Position numbers and translations under genes: made by a program. From positions 54,560,001 through 54,624,000 of the forward strand of contig OX597823.1 in NCBI GenBank assembly GCA_951406725.2: DNA of 64,000 nucleotides, given 5' to 3'. This DNA comes from Octopus vulgaris (lineage: Eukaryota). Under the pieces are notes generated by a model that had not been told where the DNA came from, did not search any database, and worked only from the letters and a program-made list of their open reading frames with translations. Positions 19,204 through 62,719 of the stretch are shown piece by piece (position 1 is the first letter of the stretch; every line of letters begins with the position of its first letter).

Positions 19204-19598
19204 CAAAATGAAAAGTAAATGGAGATTTATGATTGATACATTTTAATTTATTAACATATTATATTATTATTATTATTATATAATATAATACAAATATTAT
19301 AATCCTACAATTGTTTCAATTCAGTCCCAATAATAAATTTATAAAAATTCATGTTTATAATAGGCAAGAATCTCATCAGGGAAATTTTTGACAAAATATA
19401 AATCCTCATATGCAATTTTTGTCAAATATTTCCCTGGTGAGATTCTTACCTATAAACATGATTAAATTTATTATTGGGTCTGAATTGAAACAATTGTTGT
19501 AGGATTATGATATATTTATATCATATAATAACAATAATATAATATTTTAATAAATAAAAATGTGTTAATCATAAATCTCCATGTTCTTTTCATTTTTG
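19204..19598. mobile_element. Fold-back element (~190 bp arms) with hammerhead core; Penelope-like inverted pLTR
   Basis: Arms 19204-19397 and 19415-19598 are reverse complements; hammerhead core on the - strand. Confidence 0.75.
19303..19382 (-). ncRNA. Minimal type-I hammerhead ribozyme
   Basis: tcc-CTGATGA-gattc...gaatt-GAAA-caattg-TA-gga: 3-bp stem I, stem II, palindromic stem III, GUA triplet. Confidence 0.65.
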
Positions 19599-19976
19599 CA
19601 TATTGAATATATACCCATTTGGATTGTGGAAAGTTTATACCATTGGGTATAAAACTGCCAAACCACCTGCACTACCTGATGACCAAGATAGAACTGAGGA
19701 GTAAAGTTGAAATTAAACTCCCTTTGTTACAATGGCAAAGCAGATTGAAGCCCCCAATTTCAAATAAATAAATTATAGGCCATGAGGAGGATAGCATTGT
19801 GACTGGAGATCTCAGTGGTAGAAATATCAGACAAATTTCCTTAAATGACACACTGGATCATGTCCTAGAGATACAATGCTTAAGAGAGTAATGAAGTGGT
19901 CAGTCATAGCTGACGCAACCTTTGATCACAACTGACCTGGGGCTTAAAACAATTTTGTAAAAATAGGTTGACTTAA

Positions 19977-21610
19977 GGCATGGATGTGAGGTAAAAAGCT
20001 TGCTTCTCAAATACATGGTACTGGGTTCAGTCCTACTGCATGGCACCTTGGGCAAGTGTCTTCTACAGCATTGGGCCAACCAAACTCTTGAGAGTGGCTT
20101 TGGAAGACAGAAACTCAAAGAAGCCCGTTGTGTGTATATGTATGTGTGCGGATGGATGGATAGATAGATAGATATTGGGTTGACAAGAAAGCAATTTCAT
20201 TTTTTTCTAGTGTGAACTAAAAGTAATTTTTTTCATACAAAGAATGAACTTTAATCAATTATATATGTTCCATTTTGTTCAGTGACCTTTTGCCATCTTT
20301 CTGGTAACTTCATGATTCTGCACTCATAGAACTTCTGATCCTTATCAGCCAAAAACTGAAGCAAGTGCAATTTCAGGCCATCATTATTATTGAAAGTTTT
20401 ACCATTCAAAGAATTTTGCAAACTTCGAAATAAACGGTAATTCAATGGTCCAAGCTCAGGGCTTGTGAATGTGACATCACTTCCCAACCAAGCTCCAATA
20501 AATTTTCAAGAGTTAGCAAAGACCTGTATGATCTAGCGTTGTCATGGTGGAACACAATTCCTTTATGATTTGCCAATTCTGGCCATTTTTCTTTGACTGC
20601 TTCCTCCAGTTTCATTAGTTGACAGTAAGCATCTGAATTGATTGTTTGGTTCCTTGGAAGCAGCTCAAAATACACAACACCTTCGTAATCCCACCAAATT
20701 GACAACATGACCTTTAATTCAGCTTTCGATGTGGTTTGTGCTGGTTCATTATGCTTGGACCTTGATTGTTTTCAATTGATGTCATTGTAGATAATCCATT
20801 TTTCATCACCAGTGATGATTTGTTTCACCCCCCTCCCCCCAAAAAAACCGTCGATTTTATTGCGTCTGAGATGCATATCACAAATATTGATTCGTTAAGT
20901 GAATCTCTTTTAATTTATGTAGAACACATATATCAAGCTTCTTAACAAGTCCCTTGCACAGTTATATGACAATCAGATTCAATTATGACTGATTTGGTCA
21001 TCATCAACTTCAGTAGGTCGACCAGAACGTTGGTTATCTTGGAGTGAAAAATCTCCAAAATGGAATTTTTAAAACCATTTCTGACATGTTCGTTCTGTTA
21101 AGCAATCAACACCATAAACTTCACATACCTCTTTGTGAGCCTCAGCAGCTTTCTTGTTTTTACGGAAATAAAAAAAGCAAAACATGGCAAAAATGTTCGT
21201 TTTTGCTCTCCATGTTAAAATTAACACTGACCTAACAGTTGTAAACAAAATTGCGCGCAATTTGCTTCTAAAGTAAGCTAAAAGTGAAAACTATCAAATG
21301 TCAAAAGGAAAAAAAATCATAACATTGACAAAAGTCATACAAAATATCTTAACTATTTGCGAAAAACGAAATTACTTTCTTATCAACCAAATATGTGTGT
21401 GTGTGTGTATCCATGTGTTTGTCCCCTACTACCGCTTGACAGTTGATGCTGGGGTGTTTATGTCCTCGTAACTTAGCGGTTCGGCAAAACATTCCGATAG
21501 AATAAGTACCAGGCTTTTAAAAAAAAGTCCTGGGATCGATTTGTTTGGCTAAAACCCTTCAAGGAGGCGTCCCAGCATGGCCGCAGTCAAAAATGTCAAA
21601 CAAATAAAAG
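19977..21610 (+). mobile_element. SINE family A split by a mariner insertion
   Basis: 5' half 19977-20172 and 3' half 21394-21610 join into a normal copy. Confidence 0.85.
20175..21391 (-). mobile_element. Full-length defective mariner transposon (~1.2 kb)
   Basis: TIRs ttgggttgacaagaaagcaatttc / gaaattactttcttatcaaccaaa with TA TSD. Transposase pieces: EVCEVYGVDCLTERTCQKWF, WWDYEGVVYFELL, HHDNAR, SPELGPLNYRLFRSL, KLPERWQKV. Multiple frameshifts. Confidence 0.93.
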
Positions 21611-21630
21611 ATATATATATATATATATAT

Positions 21631-21828
21631 TTCTTTACTATCCACAAGGGGCTAAACACAGAGGGGACAAACAAGGATAGACAAACGGATTAAGTCGATT
21701 ACATCGACCAAGTGCGTAACTGGTACTTAATTTATCGACCCCGAAAGGATGAAAGGCAAAGTCGACCTCGGCGGAATTTGAACCCAGAACGTAACGGCAT
21801 TTCGTCCGGCGTGTTAACGTTTCTGCCA
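21631..21828 (-). mobile_element. SINE family B
   Basis: Matches 52409-52640 in reverse. Confidence 0.88.
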
Positions 21829-23207
21829 ATATATATATAAATTAGTCGGTTCTCTGAGAGTCCTCAAATCCTTGATAGGCCTGGGTGGGCTAGACATTCA
21901 AAATTACTGTCTCACCTAGCAGATCCTCAAACTAGTAACATCAACAGATGTTCCAGCTCTGGACGAGATCTCACAGATAACAGTAATAAAAACAAAACAA
22001 GAATGGCAGCTACGGTTTCTACTAATCTACAACGTATTAAAGAGCCTCCATGTAACCACTTGAACAGTTAGAAATAACAGCCAAATTTCCTTGAAATCCA
22101 AATAGAAGTTTAAAGACTACATCACCACGTTAGATAATGTAGTGGTATTCTTTCGATGAGGATATTTTATCTATAATACAGGAGCCTCTACAAAGTCACT
22201 CGATTTGCTAGAAATAGTAGCCAATATTACGTCAATTCATTACTGTCTTTAAAAGGATGTTAAATAGTTGGCGAATAGAAAGATAAATAAAACAGGTTAA
22301 TCACGATCGGAACGCCTTAGGTCAAGTTTACTAGTTCAGGACAAAAACTGGGGTTAAAATAGCAAGGTGAAAGATTTCAAATTGAAGCACGGGTCACCTG
22401 ATTTTTTTTTTATTGGGGGGGTGGGCGGTAGTTGGTGTAAGGTTAAATAATTCATTAAACTAGTTAGTACTTTGACAGGTACGTATCTGATTAAAAATGA
22501 AAGAACGAAAGACAAAAAGACAACCCAGGCAGGATTTGAACTAATAACATAATGCTTACGCGAGTGACTAGATGCCAATAAAGAGCGTTAAAAATAAAAA
22601 AAAAACTGGAAATTTACAACGAGTCAGTCACATGTAAAAGCAAACTTTGTGATTACACACACACACACACACAAATAGGCGTGTGTGTATGTGAGTGTGT
22701 GTGTGTAACACTAACATCGTGACTCAATGATAAGTACGCGAGGTCGGATTACGAAGTAGTCATGTGAGATGGTAAAACAATAAGCAAACAAACGATCAAC
22801 AAAACCAAATAGCAAATAGTTTCAGTTGTTTTGTCCCACAGTCAGCTAACTCTGCCTGAGCAGAGTTAAAGGTGTGTGCCCGTAAGAAACAACATCACCA
22901 TGTCGTTATAAAACAGGACGGGCACACACGCGGGATGAAACTCTTTAAAACAATATTCAACAATCGGTCATGTTTGTTTATGTGTGATATATTTCGTCAT
23001 ATATTGGCATACACACGCACTTATTAAATAATATATACTACATCAACTCGAAATGAGGTTAATTATTATTGACATTAGGTTTGGATTAAGTGCCAATACA
23101 CGAAACTCTCGGACCTTCAGTCACTCTGTTACTTCAGCTAAATATTAATTAAAAATATACATATACTCATATTTTGAGTTCTATTGTCTTGTTTGCACCA
23201 ACATGCC

Positions 23208-23239
<32 letters not shown>

Positions 23240-23339
23240 CGTGAAAATTGAGAGGATGATCCGGTTCTTGACTGAAGATTGAAGGTTTCGAATGTCCCGT
23301 CCGTGCTTTTTGTATCGTCTTCTAAATGTTTTGCGTTCT

Positions 23340-23432
<93 letters not shown>

Positions 23433-23559
23433 TTTATTCACCATAAGGTTGAGAAAAAAGGGGACGATACAGGACAGACAAAACAAACATTGGGGTCAGG
23501 GTATCGAATGAGAAGAAACATATGAGAGAGTTATAAACATTTAAACTCACTGGCATGCA

Positions 23560-23617
<58 letters not shown>

Positions 23618-23714
23618 GTTTTCAAATAGCCAGATAACCGAAGAGATGTCGTGGATTCCCACTTCGGCATCAGAAACTCAGTTTTATCTTGACTATCGAG
23701 TAATGTAACATATT

Positions 23715-23758
<44 letters not shown>

Positions 23759-24332
23759 ATCCAAACATGAAAACACAAAGAGAAAACACAACAACGCGAG
23801 GACGTGGAACAAATATAGTATTATTGGACGCTCAGGAGAGAAGGAAAGAAGGAGGGTTTAACGTTTCGATAGGAGAAGGGAAGATCCAGAGAAGGGAAGA
23901 CAGGAAAAAAAAGAGAGAGAACATTTTCTCAAAGCTACCCTGGTCTTATCTCCAGTCTACATCTTGCATGTGTATATATAAGCATTATGACACAGCTCCA
24001 CATGACAAAGTTGAGGACTCTCGTGAAAAACCCATCCCTCTAGATATCTGATGAGATGAGTCCGTCCCACTTGCCTACGAATCTCTAAAGTCATATGGAG
24101 GTGAGTCAAAATTGTTATTGAATAATAAATGCAACTCCTAACAAATGTGTAGAGTGTCATTTACTTTCGTTTGCTTACTCATTCGTGTCTGTGGTAAGAA
24201 GTCTAGTTCCCAAAATTGTTCCCTGTTCAGTCCCATGCGTGACACCTTAGGAAAGTGTCTTTCTATTATAGCTTCGAGCCAACCAAACCTTGTGAATGGG
24301 TTTAATAGGCAGAAAACTGAAAGAAGCCAATC

Positions 24333-24388
<56 letters not shown>

Positions 24389-24530
24389 ATGTGTGTGCGT
24401 GTCTTTGTGTCTGTATTTGTCTCTCGTTAGACCAAACTTCTTCAATGGCTGCAGTCTAATAACTGAAAAGATAAGTTACGTACATATGTATGATGGCATT
24501 GTGAGCACAGAATTTGGTTATGCTGTAGAC

Positions 24531-24772
24531 TAGTTATTCTCAACGGCAGTCCGTATGACCCTTGGAGACCCTGTAAGATTTTAAGTTTATGCGCAAATTG
24601 GCTATACTTCTACGACACACATTAATATCTTTTAAAATACAATTCCTGATAATATTTAATTATAACACAACAGGAGTTTTTTAAACATCGAATGGCTATC
24701 GGTGAGGTGGACCAGCAGAGTTAAATAGGAACCACAAGGGCCCATAGGTAAAAAAATAGTTGAGAACCACTA
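24531..24772. mobile_element. hAT (Charlie-like) MITE
   Basis: TIR tagttattctcaac / gttgagaaccacta; 8-bp TSD CTGTAGAC / CCGTAGAC. Confidence 0.8.
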
Positions 24773-25754
24773 CCGTAGACAATGCATAAACACCAGCCAA
24801 CCACACATCCACCTACACACTCACTAATTCACAAACAATAACGTGATCGTGTAGTTACCAGCAGTTTAACTAAATTCGGTCATAACAACGTCAACACCAC
24901 CATTGTTGCCACCCAGGAGCCATCATTAGCAACATAAACAGCGAGATGCTAATTACACCAATGGAAGTTTAAAAGAGCAATCATTACTGCACAGGACTTT
25001 GTGTGTATGAGACAGACAGACAGACAGGCACAGAGAGAGAGAGCAGTACCGATTAAAAAAGAAAAAAATGCGTGACTCCGATCCAACGAGAAAGTCCCTT
25101 TGTGCTGTTCAGGTCTGCACTACAGTAATTTTTCGATGGCGTGCCATTCAGAAATAAACCCCGCTAGCCGCAGTTTACTCGTAACTGCTCTGCGTGGTAC
25201 TTATTCTACCAGTATATTTTGACAAACCGCCTAGTTACGGGGACGTAAACAAAGCAACACTGGCTGTGTGATGGAAAGGGGACAGATACGAAGACACATA
25301 CACATATATGACGGGCTTCCACAGTTTCCGTCGACTGAATTCACTCACAAGGCATTAGTTGACCCAGAGCTACGGGAGATGACATTTGCACAAGGTAATG
25401 GTACAGCGACACTGATCCCACTGCGTGGTTGCTAAGCGAGTCTCTATACAGCTCAATTTTTATTTTACCTAAATCAGTTCTTACTTAGAGTCTAGATTAG
25501 GTATCTATGTGGACAATTGAGTGACATTATATAATTTGCTTAGAAAATATGTTAACCTCATAAAGGGATGGTTACACCCAATGACATACTGGTTCTATAA
25601 CATGTTTTTTAGGGAAATGAAATTCCCTTAAATCAATAGGTATATATTGAGCATATCATTCATGTTCAGTTGACTGAAGGGGAGAAAACGGCTGTAAAGT
25701 TACCAATTTGTTAATAAATAATTAACTATCACTCCAGTTTCTTTCTTTCAATTA

Positions 25755-26282
25755 ACTGAACAGGCCATAATGATGGGACACATTTTAAATGATCTTGGAT
25801 TATAAAAATAACAGTACCAAATACATTTATTACTTAATTGATATACAGGGGTTCAACAAATCTAAGATTTTACTATTTTTTACAGGCAGTTGGTGTTGGT
25901 GACCCTCATAATGTCGTGGACTCTAAAAGCAAAAATTGCACATGTGGTCGAAGCTCACTTCACTAGCCAAAAATCCATCGTTGCAGGCCAAAGAAAATTC
26001 CGTCAGCATTTTGGAGAGCAATAGACGTCATCCCGAAAGGTGACCCAGTGAGACAGGCGATTGCAGCCACTGTAGTTGATATGCTAAGCCGCAGTGTTCT
26101 TAAATGAGAAAGCGAGCTGGTGAATGTTCTCTTCGTGATGGTGACCATCTCCCGGATGTAATATTCAAATCTTAGATATGTCGAACTCCTGTATATCAGT
26201 TATGTAATAAATATATTTGGTACCCTACGTCATTTTTATAATAGCATTTAAAATGTGTCCCATCATTATGGCCCGGGCTGTA
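25755..26282 (+). mobile_element. Tc1/mariner-type deleted element
   Basis: 29-bp perfect inverted repeat ggccataatgatgggacacattttaaatg (25763-25791 / 26245-26273); right end ...ctgTA; internal RKRAGECSLRDGDHLPDVIFKS* resembles a transposase C-terminus. Confidence 0.7.
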
Positions 26283-27464
26283 CACACATACACACGTTTA
26301 TTGTGTTTGGAAATCTCGTAGATGAAAACAGGAAATAATAGCTGTGTAAGCCCAAGGTGAGGTAAGCTTGATTGAGTGGACATGATCAGACAGGGTGTTT
26401 AAACCACGGTCATACCTTCTTTGTTGAAGGTATAATATATCAAGGACTAATAATATCCTGTCCCACTTAGCCGAATAATCCTTTTTGAATAGCAGACGCT
26501 ACTACGACGTTCACGCAACACCTTTGCGCTTCTTCAAGAGTATTACCTCAAACTTGACGCAGTAATGAGACAGGAGTTAGAAAACTCCGAGTAAACTCGT
26601 GGTCTTTATTGTGGCAAGAGAGAGCTTGTTGCTTCGATTAAAAAAAATAAACTAGTTTGAGTAGGAAGATTTAAAATAAGAAAAAGGGAAAAAGTTCGTC
26701 TGCTGTGAAGGGAGACGGCAGGATTTTATTTAATGTTTTGGCTCGTTCACAGACTCGATCGAATTTCTGCAGTTAATTGATTTTGCATCGGTCGGCCTCT
26801 TGACTGTTACAACGTAATTAGTGTTAAGTACTCGGTCGGAGGATCTCGACAGGAGCAGTCATTGCAGCATTTCACCCCTCTGCTTGGCCATAGCGCAATC
26901 TACTTAACGAGGGAGCTTCTATATCTATACGGTTGCACAATATGTTAGAAGTACCAGCCAAATCGGCCTTGAATTACACCCTACTGTTCTAAGAAAGGAA
27001 ATTACATACTAGACATACTTTTAATGCTTTTGATCAAGATGATCCGGGGTTAAACAAAATCAGTAGCAGCAGGTGGTGTGCAGAAACAGACAGGACTGTA
27101 GCGAGAATACATGTCTAGATTGTTAACAAGCACACCAAATGCTGTTCTCGCTCCTACCTGCATGTCGCGAGACTGACAACACATTAAGTAAATAACAACA
27201 TACCGGTGTCTCTCGACAAATAACACGAACATTTTTTTTACCTGCAGTAAGGAACATGTATAGTCGATTGCGGGATACCTTGCCGAACAAGTATATTACA
27301 GGTGTTTTATATATATATACCCCTATATGTCAAGACTTCCTTTTACACTCCCACAAAAGCACCCCTTTATTTATTTATTTTTTTCAGCAATTTTTTTTTT
27401 AGAAATATGCGGAAAAATACGGAAGATTATGATTCTGAAAAAAATTCCCAAAATTTTTTGTAGT

Positions 27465-27514
27465 TACGGTAGGGTTAGGGTTTTAGGGTTACGGTTACGG
27501 TTTTAGGGTTAGGG
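27465..27514 (+). repeat. Degenerate TTAGGG/TTACGG telomere-like repeat inside a probable non-autonomous element (~27327-27675)
   Basis: ttacggtagggttagggttttagggttacggttacggttttagggttaggg. Confidence 0.7.
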
Positions 27515-27679
27515 AAAAACGTGAAAAATGAATAAATTGGGGGAAGTGGGGGGGCAAATTTCAAAATGCTGATTTTTAGCAATTTCCCGGAATCTCCATA
27601 TCCGAAAACGGGGTTTTGAGCAAAAAAAAAAAAAAAATTGGGAGAAAATGGGGTAGGGGAGTCTTTCCCAATACCTTTG

Positions 27680-28020: not shown

Positions 28021-28105
28021 TGTATGTCTAAGCATATATATATATATAACGCGAGGACGTGGAACAAATATAGTGTTATTGGACGCTCAGGAAAGGAAAG
28101 AAAGG

Positions 28106-28140
28106 ATTTAACGTTTCGAGCTGAGCTCTTCGTCAGAAAC
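28106..28140 (-). ncRNA. Minimal type-I hammerhead ribozyme in a Penelope-like pLTR fragment (28048-28205)
   Basis: gttt-CTGACGA-a-gagc(tca)gctc-GAAA-cg-TT-aaat. Confidence 0.65.
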
Positions 28141-29083
28141 ATAGAAAAAGGAAAGATCCAAGGAAAGGAAGACGGAGGAAAAAAATCGCCAACGATACAC
28201 ACGTGGACCTCAATGAAATGCACAAGGCTCTCATCAGCTCCCGGGGCAATAAGATACTTGCCCAAGGTGTCGCGAAGTAGGACTAAACTCAAGACCACAG
28301 GATTGCTTTCTACAACTAAATAGTAGAGTTGATAAAACTGAATCACCTTCATTTCTACAATCTACGACCAAATACACATTCTGTAGAGAGTCGACCAGGA
28401 AGTGAAACAGCGAAAGAAATTATTCTGTGTTTACGTGCATATTGTGTGTGTGTGTGTGTGTTGGATAGAATATTCTGTTGTAACAGTTCCAGTTCAGCTC
28501 GCCCTTCATCCGTTCGGTGATCATGAAATACTGTACCAGTCAAGAACTGGTGTCAATTCTTCGCTCTTTTCCCTCTCTCAATCTATTTCGCAAGATGTAA
28601 TAAACCACCCAAGAAACATGAATGGTGAAACCAGTGTGTGTTACTTGTGTTAACGACCTAGCAAGATATAAATGGCATCATTGATTGAAACAGGAATTGA
28701 ATTTTGTACATACAAGGCTGCCCTTTGTACAAAAACTCGTAGATAATGCAGATTTATCTTATATTCCTTTATAGAGGTTTTATTATAAGGGCTAGTTATC
28801 TATAATACTGGTTTCAATATTTCAAGACGCTTCAAAACACACTCAAGATTTCAAAGGGTGGGTAATCGATTGTATTAATACAGTAATTCAGTGGTAGTCG
28901 TTTTATTGACCCCACGCACCCACATTCTTTTTCTAAATGTTGACGAATAAAAAGGTAAACACCGGTGGGATTTGAACTCAGATCATAGATTAACGTAACT
29001 ATACACATATACTTCCAGGTATTTTATTTTAGTAAGTTCAACGCTACCGTTTCTTCTATTACCTCCCAAATCCTTAGATGACT

Positions 29084-29193: not shown

Positions 29194-29325
29194 GGTTTAT
29201 GTCCGGTCATAGAGTGACCAGTGGTTTCCTATCCACAAAGGGCTCCCAAAGTCTGACAAGCCGTCCATGGGGCTAAGCCCTTTGTGGGTGCGAAACCATT
29301 GGTCCACTATGACCGAACATAGACT
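29194..29325 (+). ncRNA. Fold-back with hammerhead ribozyme carrying one core substitution
   Basis: agt-CTGACAA-gc...gggc(taa)gccc...gc-GAAA-ccattgg-TC; arms 29194-29244 / 29276-29325. Confidence 0.55.
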
Positions 29326-29377
29326 TAACTACATATAAATACATTACTGTTCTCTACTTCAGAGTGTACTTCTTTTT

Positions 29378-29422
<45 letters not shown>

Positions 29423-29588
29423 CATCTGATGTAGAAATAGATATACAGCTGCTAAGTTAACCCTAAACCTAACTCGACGTAGGTCATCATCCAGTCTGCT
29501 TTCAGCATAGAGGTTAAGCAACTATTATATTTTGTAGTATTACTGGTTATAAATAAAGCAAATATGTAAGATAACTTACGATGAACAC

Positions 29589-29740
29589 AAGTTTATATTA
29601 TTAGTTCCTTTTTGCGTTTCACTATCGTGATTGTTTGGAACTCTCCGCGTTCGATGTTCCAATAGTACTTAGAACATTCAATGCAGAGCTCCAAACACTC
29701 ACAATGGTGAAACGAACGTAGGAACTAATGATATAAACTT
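29589..29740. repeat. ~70-bp-arm inverted repeat
   Basis: aagtttatattattagttcct...gatgttc / gaacatt...aggaactaatgatataaactt. Confidence 0.85.
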
Positions 29741-30752
29741 AAATTTTATAGAAATTTCTCAAATACATAGATATAACACTTAAAGCGCTTAGCTTTACAT
29801 ACGTTATGGGCGCGAAACATTGGGTAACTCTATAAACCGGCCCAAACTATCTATCTGTATACATAATATATATATATAACGGATTTTAATAAACTAAACA
29901 TTCATACAATAGTCATGAATTTTTTAAATAATCATTAGGTGATACGTAATATAATTAAGAACTGGTTAAGTGTAAGAAATTATATAACTGAAGGGCAACT
30001 GCCCCACAAAATATTAAATCTGGACGTTATTATCTTTCACCTGGTTTCTAGAAAAAGAAAAATCTTAAACGTTGACTAAAATAGATTATTATTATTACTA
30101 TTATTATTATTTTGTTGTTGTTTTCTACCGTTTTGTAGAAACTGGAATCGGTGGTTGCTTCTTAAATCCCACGCCCAAGTCAACAGCCATGACAGAGCAG
30201 ACCTGTATGATTCAAAGGTATTCCGATTGTGACCATCTCGTCTTTTTGTATGTAATCAAGGACAACAATGCTCAAATGAATTCTCCACACATGCTTTTTC
30301 GAAGCGGTTAGATGGGGGTTGGATAAAAGAAATAAAATGAGACCTGTCTGCTAGAAATGGTAGCCAGATCTCATTCCATTTCTAAGAAATACGTAGAAGC
30401 TTCCTTATTGGTTTGAGAAAAGTGAAAGACAAGGCCTACCGGCGTGTCGAATAATATCAGTACGGAATTCTTTATTTGTTATATAGGGCTAGTCAATAAT
30501 AAATAGTAGAATAACGGGTAATGAAAATGAACCGATTAAGAAAAAATAAGTCACAATAAACATATGCGTATATTACGCATGTAACAGGTAAATCAGACTT
30601 ACTTCTTGTTTGCAAAACAATAGACACAACAAAGATTATATCTTTTTAAGCAATAGAACGACAGAGAAAATATTCTTCCTAGTATTAAAATGGTATTCAA
30701 TAACTAATTTAATAGCTGGGCAATTATTAAGATTTTATTACACGACAACGAC

Positions 30753-30812
<60 letters not shown>

Positions 30813-35693: not shown

Positions 35694-35802
35694 TTCAAAT
35701 TTCTCTTTCCATTCAAGAAACTTTATTTGTATCAATGAGAATTGTACGTTGTTGACTACAAAAATTTTATAAACATTCGAGAGAAGGTGGAGTAATTCTT
35801 TT

Positions 35803-36385
35803 GGTTAATCTCTAGTTTAACACCCGGTCACAATTTTTTTTTTAAATAGTGTAATAGGTGTAAAACAATGTGTAGTAAACGAATATGTAGAAAAAAATGC
35901 ACGCTAACGAGCGAGTGAGGACTCGGAATATTTATTCGATCAAATTTTTTTCCCTCATAACTTTCAGGAAAATGGATATCTTTTAATGGGTGGGTGATAA
36001 GAAGCTTGCTTTCCAACCGCATGGTTCCGGGTTCAGTCCCAGTGCGTGGCACTTTGGGCAAGTGTCTTCAGCTATAGCCTCAAGCCGACTAATGCGTCCT
36101 GGATGCATTGGTCGGCCGTAAACCATGTAGTTGGGAAGCAAGCCCAGAATCATGTGGTAGGGAAGCAAGCTTCTTATCACACACCCATTAAAAGAGATCC
36201 CTTTTCCTGAAAATTATGAGGGAAAAAATCGGATCGTGTGAATATTCCTAGCCTTCCCCGCCTTCGTTCTTCAGCGCGCGTTTTTCTTCATATTCGTTTA
36301 CTACACATTGTTTTACTCCTATTACACTATTTTTTCCCCATTTTCTTCCCATGTTTTTGACCGGCTGTTAAACTAGAGATTAACC
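35803..36385. mobile_element. Merlin-like fold-back DNA element with ~200-bp TIRs
   Basis: Ends GGTTAATCTCTAGTTTAACA / TGTTAAACTAGAGATTAACC; 8-bp TSD ATTCTTTT (35795-35802, 36386-36393). Confidence 0.8.
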
Positions 36386-36836
36386 ATTCTTTTCCGGAAT
36401 TCTCGAAGCACACACGCATAAAGCTATAGATAATAGCCATGTAAATATATACATATTTGAAAAATGAATAGAAATGGCTTTGTTGATAATTGTTCCACTT
36501 GAGATGTTTATCAATCAATAGTTGTTTACAAAGCGTGACTCTGTTGTGAGTTTCTCACTTAAAAGTGGTTTTTAAGCTATTCTAATTTTCCTTTTACTTC
36601 AGTCTCCCCTTGTATGCGTAGGTAGAGTTGTTGAACTACACACACACACACACACACATACACACACACACATACACACACACACACACACACGCACACA
36701 CACACACACATTCTCGTAAACATCTAATGATTTGTAAACATTCTAATTATTAAAGTAGAAAAATTTTCAGAAAATCTATTTCTGTTCATAAGCAATAATA
36801 AATCTCTGAACGAGGTATAAACAGTAACTGCACGAC

Positions 36837-37146
36837 AATGTGAAGTATATTTGCTATTTAAATGTGGCTAACCACTAAGGGTGGATGCTAGTGTAGCTTG
36901 TAGCCCCAGGAGAACATCTCCAGCTGGCTATTGACACACTTTCTGTGCCCTATCAGTATTTGAAAAGGGAAGCCATCCTTCCCATCGTCGACCTGACGTG
37001 ATACGCACGGACCCGGGTTTCTGAATATTTACCCGTCGTCAACGCACGACAATCAGCTGGAGAAGATGTTCTCCTGGGGCTACAAGCTACAGTAGCATCC
37101 ACCCTTAGTGGTTAGCCACCTTTAAGTGGCAAATATACTTCACATT
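36837..37146. repeat. ~90-bp-arm inverted repeat element
   Basis: Arms 36837-36926 and 37054-37146 are nearly perfect reverse complements. Confidence 0.9.
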
Positions 37147-43241: not shown

Positions 43242-43480
43242 TATGTATTTGTAAATGTGTGGTTTTATGTAAAATCAAATAATTAAGCTGCAATTGAAAG
43301 AGTCCTCAATACCTAACAAAGAGTTTGACAGTAATGTTAAAGTTTTACCAGTGAATGACAAAACTTGGACATCATTGTCAAACTCATTGATCACTGCCAT
43401 AATGAAACTTCACTTTCACCTTTTTCTTTGTGGACACACACACACGCACACACGATATTACACATGATATTATATATATA

Positions 43481-44197: not shown

Positions 44198-44432
44198 AAT
44201 GTTCAAAGGTTGGTTTTTTTACAAATAGTTATTGTTAAGGTATTATCAATCTGGGCAAAATGCTCCATAAGCTTTCTGTTTGCACACCAGGCTAACAATA
44301 TTGTTTAGATTGACAAGAGGCTCCAAGTATTCTTCTAGCAGGGTCCAAGGTCTATACTTCATCACCATTCTATATTGAAAATCTGTGGTTGTGCTTCTGT
44401 CAAACTGGTTTTTACAGTGAGTGATATACAAA

Positions 44433-44737
44433 ACAAGGTATAAATAATGGTTATCACATATTTTCCCTTTATTGGAGTAAATTTGGCTTACAGCTGTTTC
44501 CAGTAGTCATTATAGGTTTGTTACTGATAGGTTTCTCAATTGGTCTATTGCTCAGTTGAGTGAAATGGCTCTGATGAAAGTAGCATTAATTTTCTAGGTC
44601 GTTCAACTTTCTCAACTGATCAATAGACCAATTGACAAACCTATAAGTAACGAACATATGATGACTCTGGAAACAGCTGCAAGTCAAATTTACTCTAATA
44701 AAGGCAAAATAAGTGATGACCATTATTTATACTTTGT
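44433..44737. mobile_element. Fold-back element (~128-bp arms) with degenerate hammerhead
   Basis: Arms 44433-44560 / 44611-44737; tatgatga-ctctg-GAAA-cagctg-(C/T)A motif followed by AATAAA. Confidence 0.7.
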
Positions 44738-44764
44738 CTTATATATATATATATATATACAGAC

Positions 44765-46788: not shown

Positions 46789-47179
46789 AAAATGGGGAAG
46801 CTGGTTTATGAGACTACTGTAAGGCGTATCGTCAGATCACAAAAACCTGTTGGCCCATAACCTCTTAAAAAATTATATATATATATATATATATATAATA
46901 TTTATAATATATGTGTCTGTATTATGTGCTGGTGCCATGTAAAAAGCACTCGGCACACTCTGTAAAGTGGTTGGAGTTAGGAAGGGCATCCAGCTGTAGA
47001 AACCACGCCAAATCAGACTGGAACCTGGTGTAGCTCTCTGGCTTGCCAGCTCTGGTCAAATTGTGCAAGACATGTCAGTAAAGTGAGAATGAGCAGCAAG
47101 TTAACTGAAAAATTTAACCTGCTACTAAGTAAGCGTCTATCAAAGTGCAGTTCACAGACTCCTCCTGTTTATTATATTT

Positions 47180-50596: not shown

Positions 50597-50975
50597 TATA
50601 TATATATGTATATGTAAAAAAATACAAACTGGGACAAGAACGCAAAACATTTAGAAGACGATACAAAAAACACACACGGGACATTCGAAGCCTTCAATCT
50701 TCAGTCAAGAACCGGATCATCCTTGCAATTTCGGCTGATTAATCTTGAAATTGCTCCGATCTGGCCAGCCCCAAAGGAAAATCTAAGCCAAGCACATTAG
50801 ATTCCTTGGAAGAAAGCCTCGAATGTATACAAAACAAGGACGGAAAACCGGACGATGTTACACGATGAAGATTGAAGGCTTCGAATGTTCCGTCCGTGTT
50901 TTTTGTATCGTCTTCTAAATGTTTTGCGTTCTTGTCCCAGTTTGTATTTTTTTACATATACATATATATATATAT
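50597..50975. mobile_element. Fold-back element (~100-bp arms) within (TA)n; same family as 23240-23343
   Basis: Arms 50597-50703 / 50866-50975 are reverse complements. Confidence 0.8.
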
Positions 50976-53294: not shown

Positions 53295-53328
<34 letters not shown>

Positions 53329-53575
53329 CAGTTACAATGATGATGGTGATGATGATGTCGATGATGATGATGATAATGATGATGATGATAATAATGATGA
53401 TGAAAATGATGATGAAAACGATAATGACGATGATAATGATGGTGATGATGATGAATGATGATGACAGCAATGATGTCAATGAGAACAATGATGATGATAA
53501 TGATGATGAAAACAATAACGATGATGACAATGATGATGACGATGATGATGATGATGATGATGACGACGACGATGA
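53270..53575. repeat. (GAT)n imperfect microsatellite
   Basis: Direct observation; similar tract at 48735-48860. Confidence 0.9.
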
Positions 53576-54290: not shown

Positions 54291-54294
54291 ATTA

Positions 54295-54690
54295 TGTTAT
54301 TATTATTATTATGGCTGCCCCCCTCGTTATCGAGTATGGCCATTGCACAAAGCTTAACTGTTACTGGTGCTGTGATCGAATGTGACTTTTTAGCCCAGCT
54401 AAAGATCTGCAATGTCTTGTACAGAATTGGCAACTAATACCTTTACCGGTAATAGATGGCTATAGTTGTAACTGGGCTTTATGAACCTTTGTATGTCGTT
54501 TAAGTCCTCCTGCCGAATTACACTCTCTTCCACATGCCCGACAGATATGATTAGTATGGTGTGTTACACCACCACCAGTGGCCAGGTTGTCACTCATCTG
54601 TCTCGCTTTATGACTACAAAGATGACTCTTGAGTCCAGCTTTACTGAGGAAGGGTCTTGCACAGACATTGCATGTCAGCATCAAAGGAAG
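54295..54690 (-). mobile_element. Probable LINE 3' end encoding two C2H2 zinc fingers, with (TAA)n tail
   Basis: CNVCARPFLSKAGLKSHLCSH and CRACGRECNSAGGLKRHTKVH, stop at 54460, short UTR ending ggcagcc(ata)n. Confidence 0.55.
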
Positions 54691-54869
54691 ACATACATAC
54701 ATACATACATACATACTGTCAGACAGATAGACAGGCAGAGAGACAGACTGATAAACAGACAAACTGACAGACAAATACTGAGAATACCTGCTGGTAATAA
54801 TGAGTGTAAGGTTTGTCACAAGCAATGAAAATGTACTCAACACATTACAAATAGAGTTGGGTAAGTTTT

Positions 54870-56625
54870 ATCCTTCCATCCAATTTTTTTTCTGATGAAG
54901 CATGTTACAGGTATCTAGGGGTAGATTAAAACATACCTTTTGATAGCACCTGTAACAAGGCACATATCACTAAGGAATATTACAGCTGGGTAAAGAAAAT
55001 ATGGACCTTGGAACTCTCTGCATTCAATAAAACAGTGGTCCACAATGTGTTTGCAGTGCCAATACTCATACCAACATTTGGGGCTGCTTGATTGGATGCT
55101 TGATGAGATCCAAGTCATTGATGTGAAAACTCAGAAGATACTAACAAGCACATAATTTCCACATCAACAGTGACATAGACTGCCTCTACCTAAAAGAAAA
55201 ACAAGGCAGCAGAGGCTTAACATCGATTCAGACTGCTTTTGAATGTTATATCATATCCCTTCGGCAACATCTTTTAACCATCAAGTATTGAAGTGTATCC
55301 CTTGACCAAATTTGCCTACACAATGTAGATAACATAATGAGACTTGGAAAGCAGCCCCTAGAGCAGCATTCCTTGTCTGATAACCTTAAATACATGCCCA
55401 AAGATGTCACATGACTTTACTGCAACACATCATCAGATGAAAGGATGAGCATATATCAGAAGATCATCAAAGTAGTCTATCATGGACCAGCAACTGGATT
55501 ACTAACTCTCACTTGGGAGGGTATGCATTTGCAATCCAGGAACAGGAAATATCAATCAAATACCTGATGCACAAAAGGGGCAGAGATGCAGAGAAAACAC
55601 TAAAATGGGATAATCAATGCAGACTTTGTGGATTTAACACTGAAGATGTCACCCACATCGTAAGCAGTTGTCCAAAAATATCATTATGTTATTATCTACT
55701 TTGTCAGCCTTGTCTGGCACCTGTGCCAGTGGCACGTAAAAAGCACCCACTACACTCTCGGAGTGGTTGGCATTAGGAAGGGCATCCAGCCATAGGAACA
55801 TTGCCGAATCAGGCTGGGTCTGGTGCAGCCTTCTGGCTTCCCAGACCTCTGCTGAAGCGTCCAACCCATGCTAGCATGGAAAGCGGACGCTAAACAATGA
55901 TGATGAGGCAGTTTGTTGTAGCCATGACACGTATAATGAGATCTGTCAAAAGGATAGCCCCAAGGCCAAAGAGGTAAAATCTTACAGAATAGTAGAGATC
56001 ATAGCCACTCACAATATGAAATACTACTGTGGAATGTCCCAGTGAAAACCTCAATAAAATGTAAACATAACAGATCAGACATAGTGATCTCGGATGGAAA
56101 ATAGAAACTACGTACTGCAGTGGAAATCAGCTGCCCAGTGGATGACAGCAAGCTAAAAATCAGTGGAAAAGAAAACACCCATGCTGAACTATTGAGAAAT
56201 TTGCAGTTACTCTGCCTGGATTTCAAGTTCAGGTTTATAATTATTGGGGCTCTGGGATATGTAACAAACTGTCTAAGCACTGATCTTGAGAAATTAGGCT
56301 TCTTAAAACCAGAAAGGAGAAAGCTAATAAAAAAAGTACAGATTCAAATCATCAATGGAACTGGAAAACTTTGTGAAACTTTCCAGAAGTTTCATATTTA
56401 AGAATATATGCTCATGTCTAGACATGCAACTATATGCATAAGAATACATGCATAAGATAAAGCATATAAATCTGCACATGAACTGACTCTAAACACTGCA
56501 CACATATACACAAATACCCTGTTGATGTTGAAATTCCAATGAAGGACCCTTGGATCTAGGTTAGAAACCAGCTCTTTCTCTATAGGCAAGAAGTTTCGAA
56601 TTAATTTTGAATAATAACATACATA
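54870..56625 (+). pseudogene. R4/Dong-like non-LTR retrotransposon (RT thumb, CCHC, restriction-like endonuclease), decayed; interrupted by an RTE-tail repeat at 55703-55905
   Basis: YRYLGVD...KEYYSWVKKIWTLELSAFNK...GYAFAIQEQEI...CRLCGFNTEDVTHIVSSC...RSDIVI...EISCP...IIGALG. Confidence 0.85.
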
Positions 56626-56883
56626 ATAAAATAAATGTACCCTTTTAAAGCCTAGCCAGGCTCATGGTCCCGGTTTCCCGGTTTCAATGGCATATGTGTT
56701 CCCCAGCTGGATGGGACGCCAGTCCATCACAGTGTTACTCATTTTTGTCAGCTGAGTGGACTGGAGCAATGTGAAATGAAGTGTTTTGCTCAAGAACACA
56801 ACGCGTCGCCCGGTCCAGGAATTGAAACCACAATCTTACGATCATGGTGCTGACACCCTAACCACTAAGCTACGTGCCTCCAC
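56626..56883 (-). mobile_element. SINE family C (young) with 13-bp TSD
   Basis: TSD aataacatacata (56613-56625, 56884-56896); tRNA head ggaggcacgtagcttagtggttaggg. Confidence 0.9.
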
Positions 56884-57267
56884 AATAACATACATACTTA
56901 AGTATATAGTGTACTATCAATGATAAATTAATGGCTGAAATCAAAAAAATTGATAATCCACTAAAAGATCATGGTGGCTAAAGTTTAGTCTGAACTTCTG
57001 CGAGTGACTTCTACAGGAAGAAAATGGAGACAAGTAAAGGAATTATAGAGAGCCATAGTTATTGAAACAGTTGACTGTAATAGAAAAAGGTAAAAATGAC
57101 ACATATTGTTGTATCTTGCTGAAAGCATCAAGTATGCGGAAACAAAATTTTATGGGCAAAAAAATTTGTAAGGAACATAGCAATTTATGAAAATGAGTAA
57201 AGAAGCTCTCCTGATCTGAATAATCCATTGTTTGGGTTAGCTTCTTTTTTTTTTTCTTTACTTACAG

Positions 57268-57465
57268 TTCCGTTGTCATAAGGAATGCTCAATCCAACAT
57301 ATTGATTGTTCAAATTTATGCAACATGATCACAATCAGTAAACTGTTTCCATTCAAAAACAGGCAGTGGTTTTGGTGGGCGTTTTCTTTTTTGTTTTTGA
57401 TTTTGCACTATGGACTGTGACATTTCCAATACACATTTTATTAACCCCATACACAGAGATGAATG
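57268..57465 (+). other. Candidate spliced exon (5'UTR and possible ATG at 57410)
   Basis: Strong acceptor (T/C tract-cttacag) and donor ATG|GTAAGA; all three frames have stops before 57410 or shortly after; MDCDISNTHFINPIHRDE is open to the donor. Confidence 0.3.
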
Positions 57466-57506
57466 GTAAGATATGAACTTTGAATTAGTGATATCAAAAC
57501 TAAATA

Positions 57507-58994
57507 CTTTTACCCTTTTACTTGTTTCAGTCATTTGACTGCGGTCATGCCGGAGCACCACCTTTAGTTGAATAAAATCGACCCCAGGACTTATTCTTTG
57601 TATGCCTAGTACTTATTCTATTGGCCTCTTTTTGCTGAACCACTAAGTGACAGGGACATAGACACACCAGCATTGGTTGTCAAGCGATGGTGGGGGGACA
57701 GACACAAACAACAAACATATACATACATATATATACATATAGATATATATACGACTGGCTTCTTTCAGTTTCCGTCTATCAAATCCACTCACAAGGCCAC
57801 AAGGCTTTGGTCAGCCCGAGGCTATAGCAGAAGACACTTGCCCAAGGTACCATGCAGTAGGACTGAACCTGGAACCATGTGGTTGAGAAGCAAGCTTCTT
57901 TACCACACAGCCACTCCTGCACCTATTTGAAATACATCTAATACATTGCTGTACTGTCAGGGCCATCTTCACCACAACTATAATTGCAAAGAGACTCGTG
58001 GTCTCCCAAATGAGCTAGATAGTGTGGGAGAGTCAATGTAGTCACACAATCTGCTAGACATAACAGTAAAATGTTGTTGGTGAATGCAATTGAGACAACT
58101 TTAAATCAAAATCACCATCCATGCATCATATCATTTATCTTTTGCTTGTTGCAGTTGTTAGACTGTGGCCATGCTGGGGCACTGCTTTCAAGAATCTTAG
58201 TCAAATGAATTGACCCCAGTCCTTTTCCTTTTTTTTAAGCCTGGTACTTACTCCATTGGGCTCTTTTGCTGAACTGCTAAGTTACGGGTATGCAAACACT
58301 CCAACACTGGTTGTCAAACAGTGCTAGGGTAACAAACAGACACAAACACATGCACTCACACATACACATGCATGCATGCACACACACACACACACGAGTT
58401 TCATTCAGTTTCCATTTACCTGATCCCACTCACAAGATTTTGGTTGGCTGGAGGCCATACTAGTAGACACCGGGCCAAGGTGCCACACAGTGGGACTGAA
58501 CTTGGAAACCATGCGGTGGGGAATGAAGTTTCTTACCATACTGCAACATCTGTGTCATTACTAAATCTATATACACTGTTGAAAGTTATGATGCTTTTGT
58601 CTTTACTCTTTTACTTGTTTCAGTCATTTGACTGCGGCCATGCTGGAGCACTGCCTTTAGTCGAGCAAATCGACCTCGGGACTTATTCTTTGTAAGCCCA
58701 GTACTTATTCTATTGGTCTCTTTTGTCGAACCGCCAAGTGACGGGGACGTAAACACACCAGCATCGGTTGTCAAGAAATGCTAGGGGGACAAACATATAC
58801 ACACACATACATATATATATATAAATATATACGACAGGCTTCTTTTAGTTTCCGTCTACCAAATCCACTCACAAGGCATCGGTCGGCCTGGGGCTATCAC
58901 AGAAGACACTAGCCCAAGATGCCACGCAGTGGGACTGAACCCGGAACCATGTGGCTGGTTAGCAAGCTACTTACCACACAGCCACTCCTGCGCC
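57507..58994 (-). mobile_element. Three SINE family A copies (57507-57923, 58138-58548, 58601-58994)
   Basis: Reverse-complement family sequence. Confidence 0.88.
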
Positions 58995-59225
58995 TATGTC
59001 TGAGAAAAATCACTTTATAGACGTGTCAGAATAGGGCAAATATTGTTGAAGCAGTGGCTTATGAGAACAACAGATGCATTCTGCCCTATTTAGAACTTGT
59101 TAATGCCATGCACCTGTTCGTCACTTGTTAAAATTAAATTCATCTTGTGATATATAGAAAGCAGTGAACAGCAAACTCACTTGTTCTTGCAGAAAAGTTA
59201 CTGAGCTGTAAAAAAAAAAACTCAG

Positions 59226-59301
59226 TGAACAACAACAGCAGCAGCAGCAACTACAACTACCACTACTACTACTGCTGCTGCTGCTGCTACTACTACTACT
59301 G

Positions 59302-59368
<67 letters not shown>

Positions 59369-59369
59369 C

Positions 59370-59407
<38 letters not shown>

Positions 59408-59429
59408 CACTACCACCACCACCACCACC

Positions 59430-59497
<68 letters not shown>
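59226..59497. repeat. Compound (TAC)n/(CAC)n/(TGC)n trinucleotide tract
   Basis: Direct observation. Confidence 0.95.
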
Positions 59498-60690
59498 ATC
59501 CTTACCATTATCATCAATGTCATCACAATTTAGTGTCCATTTTCCATGCTGGTATGAATTGAATGGTTTGACAGGACCTGGCCAGCTGAAGAGCTGCCTG
59601 GGCCCTACGTCTCTTTTGGCATGGTTTCTACAACTGGATGCCCTTCCTATCACCAACTACTTTACAGAATGTACTAGGTGCTCCCATGCAGTACCAGTAC
59701 GAGTGCTTTGTACGTGGCACCAATACCCATGAGCCTGTAAGATTAAGACTGGCTCACAAGCTGATAAGATTAAAGTAAAATCATCATTTGTATACCATAC
59801 TTGATGTATATATATACCTTTGAAAGGCACAATGCTGTGGTTTTTGTCAGAGAGAAAATATTTTCCTGGACATGTTTTAAAAAATAGAATATATATTGGA
59901 ATGAAGCAAAGATCATTGCAGCAGTGACTCACAAGATAGATGCATTCCAACTCTACTTGGGGTGGATCAGGTTTCAATGGTGTGCACCTCTTTGTCACTT
60001 GCTAAAATAAAATCTAGTAAACAGTACATTCACTAGTATTGAGGAAAGCTTATCAAGCTCTAAAATCTTGGTGAATGTAATTGAAACTATTAAATTAAAA
60101 TTACCATCTGTGTATCATACTAAATGCATATACACCATTGAAAAGGTATGATGCTGTGGTTACTGGGAACAGAAAATCTCTTCACAAACATGTCATGCTA
60201 AAAATGCAGTATACTGGGGTCACACACACACACACGCTATTTTATTAAAGTTGTAAAAACTTTACAAACAGTTATTCAGAATTTCCAGTGACCCATTCAT
60301 CAGACAACTGAGTAATGGTTTAACTTTTTTTTTTCTGTAATAAAATAGTATTTTACTCTACCTTTGGTATTTGAGTACTATTTTTTCCACCTTGTCTTGC
60401 ACCTATGTGCTTACTTGTGCATATATACATATGTATATGCATTGGTTATCTGAGAAATAGGTCAATACATCACCAAGGCAAAATAAACTCCATTAATGTC
60501 AGTCATTATCACTGGGGTTTTTTTGTGTGTTTGATCTACTAAAAGAACAATGTAAATAGGTGTGTCAAATTACATTCTTATATGCCAAAAAAGTAAAACT
60601 TTAGCCATTTGATAAATAGATATTGAAAATTCCAGACCAAGTTAAAATATCTACTGGAGTCAATTTCATCTTTGACAGTTAGTATGTATA

Positions 60691-61097
60691 TTCTCTTTTC
60701 TCTCTTTTACTTGTTTCAGTCATTTGACTGCGGCCATGCTGGAGCACTGCCTTTAGTCGAGCAAATCGACTCTGGGACTTATTCTTTGTAAGCCCAGTAT
60801 TTATTCTATCGGTCTCTTTTGCCGAACCGCTAAGTGACGGGGACATAAACACACCAGCATCGGTTGTCAAGAAATGCTAGGGAGACAAACACAGACACAC
60901 AAACATACACACACACATATATATATACATATATACAACGGGCTTCTTTCAGTTTCCATCTACCAAATCCACTCACAAGGCTTTGGTCGGCCTGAGGCTA
61001 TAGTAGAAGACACTTGCCCAAGATGCTACGCAGTGGGACTGAACCCGGAACCATGTGGTTGGTAAGCAAGCTACTTACCACACAGCCACTCCTGCGC
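60691..61097 (-). mobile_element. SINE family A (young)
   Basis: Full-length reverse complement. Confidence 0.92.
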
Positions 61098-61153
61098 CGC
61101 ATGTATGTGTATGTGAGAAAAAATATGAACTGTCTGTAAGTGCGTGTGTATGT

Positions 61154-61184
<31 letters not shown>

Positions 61185-62111
61185 CACACGTGTGTGTGTG
61201 TGTGTAAATGGCCATGTCTGCAGGATGAGCACTGAAAGATTACCATGCCAATTTTTGTGGCAGCAGCAACTCATGCACTGGCAAATCCAGCACAGTGCCT
61301 CAAAGGAAGACATGGGTGAAACAAACTGTAGCAGAAGTGATTTAAACTGTCAATGTGTGAGATGTTTGCATTTTGACTCATCGAGGCTTAAATACCCCAA
61401 TATTGGCTCCACAAGGCCTTGTCGTTCCAGCAGTCACATGACCTTGTTATTAAGCGAACCTGTTGTTTGTATTGGTCAGCTTCTGGTTGTCCATTCGCAT
61501 TGGCACAACGGTTTATTTTTCCTTATGCAGGAAATTAATTGCCAGCTTCTGGAAGCCAACTATTCTCCATAAGTATGGCAGTTCTCAACTGTTGCAGGTC
61601 TTTGGCACTTGCCACTGACCACATGCAACATGTCTCCAGTAACGATGTATCTGACACCAGCCAGTCTCCACTTTCACCTCCACCGGACGCCTGTCTATAT
61701 AATTGCTGTATGAACACTACATGACCAACAGACCAACGGCTGTCTCTATACACCACCAAAGTATGTCAACTATGTCTACAATATCAACAGTCCAGCCTAA
61801 CCACAAATTTCTGTGTTGTAACATGTATCTTATTTCATCTATGGTAATCATTGTATTTTATAACGGAGAATAGATCATCACTTACCAGTTCAGTTTCAAT
61901 CTCAAATTGTATATATCACATTTCAACATTATCCTCATTAACCATCTTTGTTATATAAAACTGTGGAAGACTTGAAGTCCCAGCATCTCAACCTCAAGCA
62001 TGTTAAGGCCAGTGCCATGGAGTGTGAACTAATATCATCACCAGAGTCCCTCACCTACAGTAGTGTATTTGTTCATAGGACAGCTTTCCCCACTGGTCAC
62101 CAGCTGGAGAT

Positions 62112-62502
62112 TTTACTTACTCTCTTACTCTTTACTCCTTTACTCTTTTACTTGTTTCAGTCATTTGACTGGGGCCATGCTGGAGCACTGCCTTTAATCA
62201 AGCAATTCGACCCCGGGACTTATTCTTTTGTAAGCCTAGTACCTATTCTATCGGTCTCTTTTGCCGAACCTCTAAGTAACGGGGACATAAACACACCAGC
62301 ATCGGTTGTCAAGCAATGCTAGGGGGACAAACACACACACACGCATATATATATACATACATATATACGACGGGCTTCTTTCAGTTTCCGACTACCAAAT
62401 CCACTCACAAGGCTTTGGTCGGCCCGAGGCTATAGTAGAAGACACTTGCCCAAGGTGCCACGCAGTGGGACTGAACCCGGAACCACACAGCCACTCCTGC
62501 AC
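62112..62502 (-). mobile_element. SINE family A; a second partial copy at 62750-62908
   Basis: Reverse-complement family sequence. Confidence 0.9.
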
Positions 62503-62526
62503 CTATATACATATATATATATATAT

Positions 62527-62719
62527 ACTGGAGTAAACACATAAATGTGAAACAAGGTGGAAAAATGAGTACTCAAATACCAGTGGTAGAGTAATATGCT
62601 TTATTTAAAGCAGCAGAAAATTCAACAAAACCTGTTACTCTGAGTTTCCCGTTGCCGTTCATCAGACGGGAAACTCAGAGTAACAGGTTTTGTTGAATTT
62701 TCTGCTGCTTTAAATAAAG
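62527..62719 (-). mobile_element. Penelope-like pLTR with a perfect 54-bp fold-back, in (TA)n
   Basis: Arms 62599-62652 / 62666-62719 are identical reverse complements; hammerhead and AATAAA on the - strand; older relative at 60240-60420. Confidence 0.75.
62631..62670 (-). ncRNA. Minimal type-I hammerhead ribozyme
   Basis: cccgt-CTGATGA-a-cg(gcaa)cg-g-GAAA-ctcagag-TA-acagg: GNRA-capped stem II, GUA triplet. Confidence 0.65.

Follow-up and report, generated by a model that had tools for sequence, protein, structure and literature searches.

A stretch of 64,000 nt from the Octopus vulgaris genome (GenBank assembly GCA_951406725.2, contig OX597823.1, positions 54,560,001 to 54,624,000 of the forward strand), here called the window and numbered from its first letter, harbors seven loci with intact or damaged minimal hammerhead ribozymes, whose relationship to Penelope-like retroelements (PLEs) is the subject of this report. 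The genome comprises 2.8 Gb in 227 contigs, and the surroundings of the loci are filled with microsatellites and many repeats resembling short interspersed elements (SINEs); all seven ribozyme-bearing loci are themselves dispersed repeats. They define six families, named here by their position in kilobases (F19, F28, F29a, F29b, F44 and F62), together with a relative of F62 at 60.2 kb. A tblastn search of the window with two PLE proteins found no match to PLE coding sequence.

The first locus (19205..19665; arms 19205-19596, with an extra tail on the right-hand arm and (TA)n(CA)n on the left) is an old fold-back stub that resembles the end of a Hydra-like PLE. Its minus strand contains a complete type I hammerhead matching our descriptor (19301..19384), with helix I TCC/GGA, CTGATGA, a 55-nt helix II region, GAAA, CAATTG and TA; in the predicted fold helices I and II are closed, yet the z-score of the whole monomer is -0.23. 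F28 is represented on the minus strand by a solo copy at 28048..28206, of the size of a pseudo-long terminal repeat (pLTR), which lacks an inverted arm, carries a complete minimal hammerhead at 28141-28105 and corresponds to the end of a Neptune-type PLE. A second minus-strand copy, overlooked in the original prediction, lies at 23762..23911; it is 81% identical to the F28 consensus and has lost the 5' core box and helix II. The F29a stub, a Hydra PLE end at 29195..29380 (arms 29195-29324, tail to about 29380), has a sense-arm hammerhead (29248-29310) that reads CTGACAA, with G8 changed. In the F29b stub at 29430..29765 (arms 29589-29740) both arms are cut within helix II, so that the CTGANGA 5' core box is missing from this copy of a family whose consensus has a full hammerhead. 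About 0.5 Mb away, locus L162 (G000:C10:55.08 Mb) is 95% identical to positions 29500-29673, against 70-80% for other F29b copies, and is possibly a local duplication. The F44 stub, again a Hydra PLE end (44295..44746; arms 44424-44746, tail on the left arm), has U16.1 changed to C in its sense-arm hammerhead (44567-44685). The degenerate fold-back at 60236..60420, with a tail on the plus side and a short, degenerate inverted arm, comes from a family that is sister to F62 and older (80-83% identity across the 3' part) and carries a minus-strand hammerhead at 60308-60268 with a 2-pair helix I. Finally, the F62 stub at 62524..62724 (arms 62594-62724, 70-nt tail 62524-62593) represents a young Hydra family, has (TA)n at both ends, and contains a minus-strand hammerhead (62667-62628) cut inside helix I. 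The 62.6- and 60.2-kb copies retain just two helix I pairs because their 5' side has been cut off.

Self-BLAST confirmed the fold-backs claimed at 19.2, 29.2, 29.6, 44.4 and 62.6 kb (arm identity 73-92%) and the lack of one at 28.1 kb. The stem III words are those listed in the original prediction, palindromic or nearly so (CGTACG in the consensus of the 29.6-kb family), and AATAAA does lie downstream in the 19, 44 and 62 kb elements. The reported proximity to microsatellites holds for all seven elements, each of which has one end within 9 nt of such a repeat; by comparison, 8.4% of window positions lie no more than 15 nt from one. The ends were chosen by hand. The assertion that a complete or partial core is found everywhere needs qualification: full cores are seen in the six family consensuses, whereas both core boxes together with a helix I of at least 3 pairs survive in only two of the seven window copies (19.2 and 28.1 kb), and the other five window ribozymes are truncated or mutated. 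Similarly, the families are mutually unrelated to the extent that the six consensuses share only one 11-nt core match, with the exception that the 60.2-kb element is a sister of that at 62.6 kb.

The motif is not readily attributable to chance. A descriptor requiring both core boxes, helix I, two closing helix II pairs, a perfectly palindromic helix III and UH matches three sites in the window (19379, 28136 and 60303). Blockwise dinucleotide shuffles, 200 in number, averaged 0.14 sites and never reached three; with helix I extended to at least 3 pairs there are two sites against a shuffle mean of 0.075, and one shuffle in 200 reached two. An Rfam scan of the window yielded no hammerhead family among the best 150 of 155 rows at E up to 10; the rows recovered, in which microsatellites or hairpins matched miRNA models below the cut-off, were discarded. 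At first look the seven elements had 868, 262, 2,084, 1,744, 745, 328 and 2,049 candidate matches, the best 40 being scored for each, and consensuses were subsequently built from 9-60 copies per family. All six describe a full type I hammerhead with CUGANGA, GAAA, UH, helices I-III and a palindromic helix III. Helix I has 3-6 pairs whose sequences are unrelated between families yet complementary, and both helix I and helix III vary between families while pairing persists. Mean identity to the consensus is 84-89% in F19, F29a, F29b and F44, 94% in F28 and 97% in F62.

Helix II regions differ in length between families: F62 and F28 have 10-12 nt and F29a has 32 nt, while F19 reaches 52 nt, F29b 68 nt and F44 96 nt. 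In the last three the region is predicted to close into a stem better than shuffled sequences (z = -3.9, -4.7 and -4.0; none of 500 shuffles as good in each case). Within families compensatory helix II changes are rare (2/713, 0/104, 9/478 and 9/1,344 cells), as is expected because copies decay after insertion. Among F28 copies sampled 45 of 60 keep an intact core and stems, a count biased upward since the sample was partly chosen by core-containing patterns; a difference in conservation between core and flank (0.90-0.94 versus 0.84-0.89) was set aside for the same reason. The F62 sample divides between CTGA and CCGA core variants. The subfamily reading CCGATGA for CTGATGA (U4 to C) makes up roughly a quarter of the matches listed, and has a helix II of only 2-3 pairs with a GCAA loop. 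Another Hydra-like element start (L116:2200-3111) has a hammerhead whose helix I, GTCT/AGAC, differs by a compensatory pair from GGCT/AGCC of F44, with the same helix III.

The original prediction regarded these elements as an ORF-less set, and proposed looking for linked PLE frames. Such frames were found: five of the six families run upstream into Penelope-like reverse transcriptase (RT)/endonuclease sequence, namely F62, F29a, F44, F28 and, weakly, F19. The F62 case is the most extensive. A 35-letter pattern of its core has 4,443 exact matches in the genome (the reversed control has none), and same-strand neighbours include direct repeats 3,352-3,365 bp apart (a 3.36-kb unit) around an intact frame of 727 aa (P0001), i.e. 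partial tandems with pLTRs. This frame displays RWK, DKT, YRDD, CxCX5C, and CxxC and CxH around E and N, and thereby the entire set that defines the Hydra clade; the window copy shares 95% identity with the autonomous unit in L225, and its (TA)n flanks match the insertion preference of that clade. Upstream of F29a lies a contiguous, decayed RT-endonuclease frame in L114 (aa 351-620, E 4e-15). An endonuclease remnant is found 1.8 kb upstream of the F44 hammerhead in L313/L475 (E 1e-11), and another about 2.3 kb upstream of the F19 hammerhead in L354, and also in L358. For F28, the hammerhead in L469 is preceded at 1.4 kb by a decayed RT-endonuclease frame, which matches, with E 2e-47, a protein having Pfam GIY-YIG and RVT_1 matches.

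Matches to PLE proteins near family copies in L107, L116, L085, L094, L272, L345, L401 and L422 were taken as separate nested insertions or as unclear, and were not used. We also came across a young PLE family, present at L181:1930-7172 (G000:C16:20.83 Mb) and at numerous further loci, that has a 781-aa frame of RT and GIY-YIG, a second frame upstream, 456-bp pLTRs and the hammerhead-like core TTGATAA, which is the U3-A8 variant given in the accessible part of PMC4209133. This unrelated family dominates the GIY-YIG family search (best 150 of 6,136 candidates); it was rejected as the source of the seven elements, as none of 30 loci cut out tied its ORF to them.

F28 differs from the other families in its organization. 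Its copies are mostly solo ends of ~200 nt, and an inverted arm is absent from all of 30 unbiased and 28 long copies. A unit of this size, with a fairly fixed 5' end comparable to the F62 pile-up described below, 2,164 exact core matches, the high proportion of intact copies in the sample and occasional tandem copies (L079, L268, L415) would all suit a non-LTR retrozyme, in which tandem hammerhead monomers give rise to circular RNA. Retrozymes are, however, defined by head-to-tail tandem units in the accessible text of bioRxiv 10.64898/2026.07.22.740005, and no same-strand neighbour at unit spacing occurs among the first 100 F28 matches listed, or among the first 100 for F62. Moreover, at least 212 F28 copies run on further upstream, into a 1.3-kb untranslated region (UTR) and a Neptune-type RT/endonuclease frame. 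Hence, we consider a retrozyme at 28.1 kb very unlikely.

The structure of the hairpins was studied in 78 F62 units obtained from the first 100 of the 4,443 matches listed, all on contig C1. Neighbouring pairs within 10 kb in this set are 23 times head-to-head, once tail-to-tail and four times direct. An adjacent inverted, 5'-truncated arm is present in 49 units and lacking in 29, and the 49 hairpins have 39 distinct junctions, with arm lengths forming a continuum from <50 nt to 3,263 nt, reaching into the ORF. At their other end the arms have only two fixed termini, which lie 70 nt from each other, and in 47 of 49 hairpins a long end (with the 70-nt tail) and a short end (untailed) occur together (p 4e-12 against an expectation of 50%), the exceptions being one internal tandem junction and one short/short case. 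The partner arms, which were not chosen by the core pattern, form a 5' pile-up just ahead of helix I, at an initiator-like CCATTCT: 16 of 49 stop there, 81-90 nt upstream of the short end, and a single one stops at the cleavage site, which is 42 nt upstream of that end.

These observations argue against the view that the elements are a distinct class of ORF-less retroelements which replicate as hairpins with PLE enzymes supplied in trans. The predominance of short copies would agree with such a class, as would F29b, which has no ORF link, and the recurrence of one symmetric junction (86/86 nt) in seven of the 49 F62 hairpins. This junction can recur without replication because the micro-palindrome on which it lies, CTAG, is located at the common 5' stop. 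In contrast, the diversity of junctions, the arm continuum extending 3.3 kb into the ORF and the ORF links of five families are at variance with a replicating hairpin, as is the presence of an inverted arm in just 1 of 14 F44 and 1 of 9 F19 copies found by core or upstream sequence, in samples that favour longer copies. The notion of an ORF-less hairpin set in the original prediction is thus not upheld, given also the many copies that lack an inverted arm in F62 and F28, and we regard a separate class as highly unlikely. Given near-symmetric and shared junctions, there may nevertheless be a replicating hairpin subfamily within F62. Near-identical F62 hairpins with common flanks were also noticed in L021-L026 and L028-L029, on small contigs C35, C36 and C44 and at the start of C21, inside a larger repeated unit.

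Taken together, the RT/endonuclease frames, the variable arms, the tailed and untailed ends, the (TA)n flanks and the 5' pile-up link the elements to PLE insertion. It is very likely that they are 5'-truncated insertions of PLE 3' ends (pLTRs) from several families, mostly of the Hydra clade, with a type I hammerhead, and likely that each hairpin was formed anew at insertion through head-to-head joining of two partial cDNAs. The pairing of one long with one short end is likely to reflect two separate copying starts per insertion. We envisage that the element endonuclease would nick (TA)n DNA and that reverse transcription would begin downstream of the hammerhead, where it could use one or the other of two internal sites separated by about 70 nt. 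Each site would yield one cDNA, which would stop early, often at the probable 5' end of the RNA, and the two cDNA 5' ends would then be joined, often across a few shared bases; the template RNA was probably uncleaved.

An alternative that accepts the same PLE origin holds that a single cDNA, rather than two primings, gives the hairpin by priming itself or folding back, perhaps with an antisense template (PMC3846280, in its available part). The head-to-head orientation is the rule, the lengths of the two F62 arms correlate (Spearman 0.71), and the arms overlap by a few bases at 36 of 49 junctions (a figure inflated by BLAST end extension), all of which could be accommodated by a single cDNA. 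However, a fixed start predicts that the same arm should always reach further 5', whereas the two types of arm do so in 10 and 19 cases, with 18 equal; furthermore, two internal start sites have been shown in vitro for another PLE (PMC11167929, in the part available). We therefore think this route unlikely, while taking it seriously as a competing account of the hairpins.

Several points weigh against the proposal of PLE insertion through two primings. Pfam finds no family in the 727-aa frame, and its placement comes from motifs, a 21.5% match (E 6e-7) to a Pfam-confirmed PLE protein and a comparison by eye with supplement sequences. The F44 link depends on a single locus, where an internal gap interrupts the chain of matches, the F19 link consists of two weak colinear matches (E 0.001 each), and three further searches located no ORF or master element for F29b. 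The statistics on pairing and junctions are drawn from one family on a single contig; the correlation of arm lengths suits two simultaneous cDNAs but also self-priming; and about a third of the hairpins (18 of 47) are near-symmetric around one spot, some of them sharing an identical junction.

More speculatively, it is conceivable that the long helix III palindrome acts as a dimerisation signal, which pairs two uncleaved element RNAs in one RT-endonuclease dimer, such that the subunits prime different (TA)n strands at different internal starts and generate a hairpin with one tail and one tailless end; the helix II regions of 52-96 nt would then be a form missed by short-spacer descriptors. We offer this only as a tentative idea with a small chance of being right. 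The predicted helix III self-dimer has -6 to -11 kcal/mol in the families with 8-9-nt palindromes, which form hairpins, and -1.7 kcal/mol for ACGT of F28, of which none of 58 copies forms a hairpin.

The inverted arm is predicted to pair over the ribozyme across 120-390 nt, thereby masking it. Together with truncation or later mutation, which break the ribozyme, this suggests that the stubs are mostly dead on arrival. The same predicted pairing could be invoked in favor of a use by the host, as substrates of ADAR or Dicer or as ribozyme switches, and octopus shows very high hyper-editing, with lizard Penelope copies being heavily edited as well (available text of PMC5625713). The decay of copies in the old families (84-88% identity to consensus), the five damaged ribozymes in the window and the rarity of compensatory helix II changes within families speak against such a use, and editing, if present, would be a by-product expected of any transcribed inverted repeat; a host function accordingly has very little probability in our view.

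The window also holds other fold-backs. An inverted repeat at 35802-36386, with TTAA-bounded ends and a SINE inside, resembles a miniature inverted-repeat transposable element (MITE) of a DNA transposon and not a hammerhead element, and those at 36837-37146, 25763-26273 and 43317-43389 have no recognisable hammerhead core. A (TA)n-flanked fold-back at 50597-50972 (107-nt arms, 97% identity) and a solo copy at 23230-23345 form one family with CTGAAGA, a short stem and a non-standard 3' box, the 3' end of which matches repeats flanking other PLE loci. At 46835, on the minus strand, we found the 5' half of a further hammerhead-like family (CTGACGA), resembling a fuller motif in L187.

With this reading, a striking group of genomic hairpins of the octopus type can be explained as ordinary products of PLE insertion, and annotation should therefore record them under that heading instead of listing new RNA genes. 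F62, as a young and intact Hydra-clade element with thousands of copies, offers in its end pairing, junctions and 5' pile-up quantitative predictions on how PLEs produce tandem and inverted insertions, which the accessible part of PMC8557442 names as an open question. If transcribed, the stubs would raise the load of double-stranded RNA; the hyper-editing documented for octopus in the available part of PMC5625713 makes editing of transcribed hairpins plausible and shows nothing for the loci studied here.

In comparison with known systems, the elements are of a known kind, namely ends of Hydra- and Neptune-type PLEs in truncated and inverted form, a layout on record for other animals. The Hydra clade of Craig et al. 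2021, which includes Hydra-1_Obim of Octopus bimaculoides, is characterized in the accessible part of PMC8557442 by a C-terminal endonuclease, RWK, DKT, a CxCX5C linker, CxxC and CxH. The families described here share with it the linker and RT motifs, (TA)n targets, a type I hammerhead whose helix III is a short palindrome, partial tandems, and an inverted truncated copy with an optional tail; inverted 5'-truncated copies, optional tails and (TA)n targeting are already described there and in the available part of PMC3846280, which proposes self-priming. The decayed frame upstream of F29a reads, by eye, very like the Hydra-1_Obim protein in the PMC8557442 supplement. The Hydra hammerheads published in this source have the same 3-4-pair palindrome as helix III; Penelope-3_HM carries an identical ACTCAGAGT, and the coral element Hydra-2_aMil an identical CTGT/ACAG as its helix I. 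F62, in contrast, is a different young family with a 3.36-kb unit and a tail of 70 nt rather than the 30-40 nt described; the helix II regions of F19, F29b and F44 exceed the approximately 12-26 nt of Hydra rows in the supplement; and the 3' UTRs extend up to 1.8-2.3 kb. The end pairing, the 5' pile-up located just upstream of helix I and not at the cleavage site, and the 52-96-nt helix II of three families are less familiar, and constitute worthwhile mechanistic details. In the literature covered, with most subscription papers, Repbase and bioRxiv supplements lying outside the search, neither one-long/one-short pairing as a rule nor a helix II of 50-100 nt in Hydra elements was found.

The original claim of minimal type I hammerheads of the Penelope kind, palindromic in helix III and situated in microsatellite-targeted retroelements, is borne out. 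The metazoan pLTR hammerheads of Cervera and de la Pena 2014 (PMC4209133, as far as available) are alike in having an extra base after A9, a palindromic helix III and mostly single truncated copies, and that source describes opposite-strand pairs 100-700 bp apart, 3-kb tandems around the RT frame and weak activity even as dimers; unlike these, five families here have helix III palindromes of 8-9 nt, and helix II is either 2-3 pairs (F62) or very long. Non-LTR retrozymes, in the available parts of bioRxiv 10.64898/2026.07.22.740005 and PMC7229834, resemble the elements in being short, ORF-less in appearance, PLE-related and equipped with a type I hammerhead. F28 recalls Neptune-type PLEs, whose linker is CX2-5CxxC, through the DKG, the CX4CxxC linker and the canonical GIY-YIG-type domain of its upstream frame and its minimal ACGT helix III, and differs from them in its predominantly solo 200-nt ends without an inverted arm, the clade being assigned from motifs. 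A mechanistic counterpart comes from the lizard element in the accessible part of PMC11167929, where RT starts in vitro at two internal sites with a spacing of about 70 nt, which define the tail, cleavage is protein-assisted and uncleaved RNA is used.

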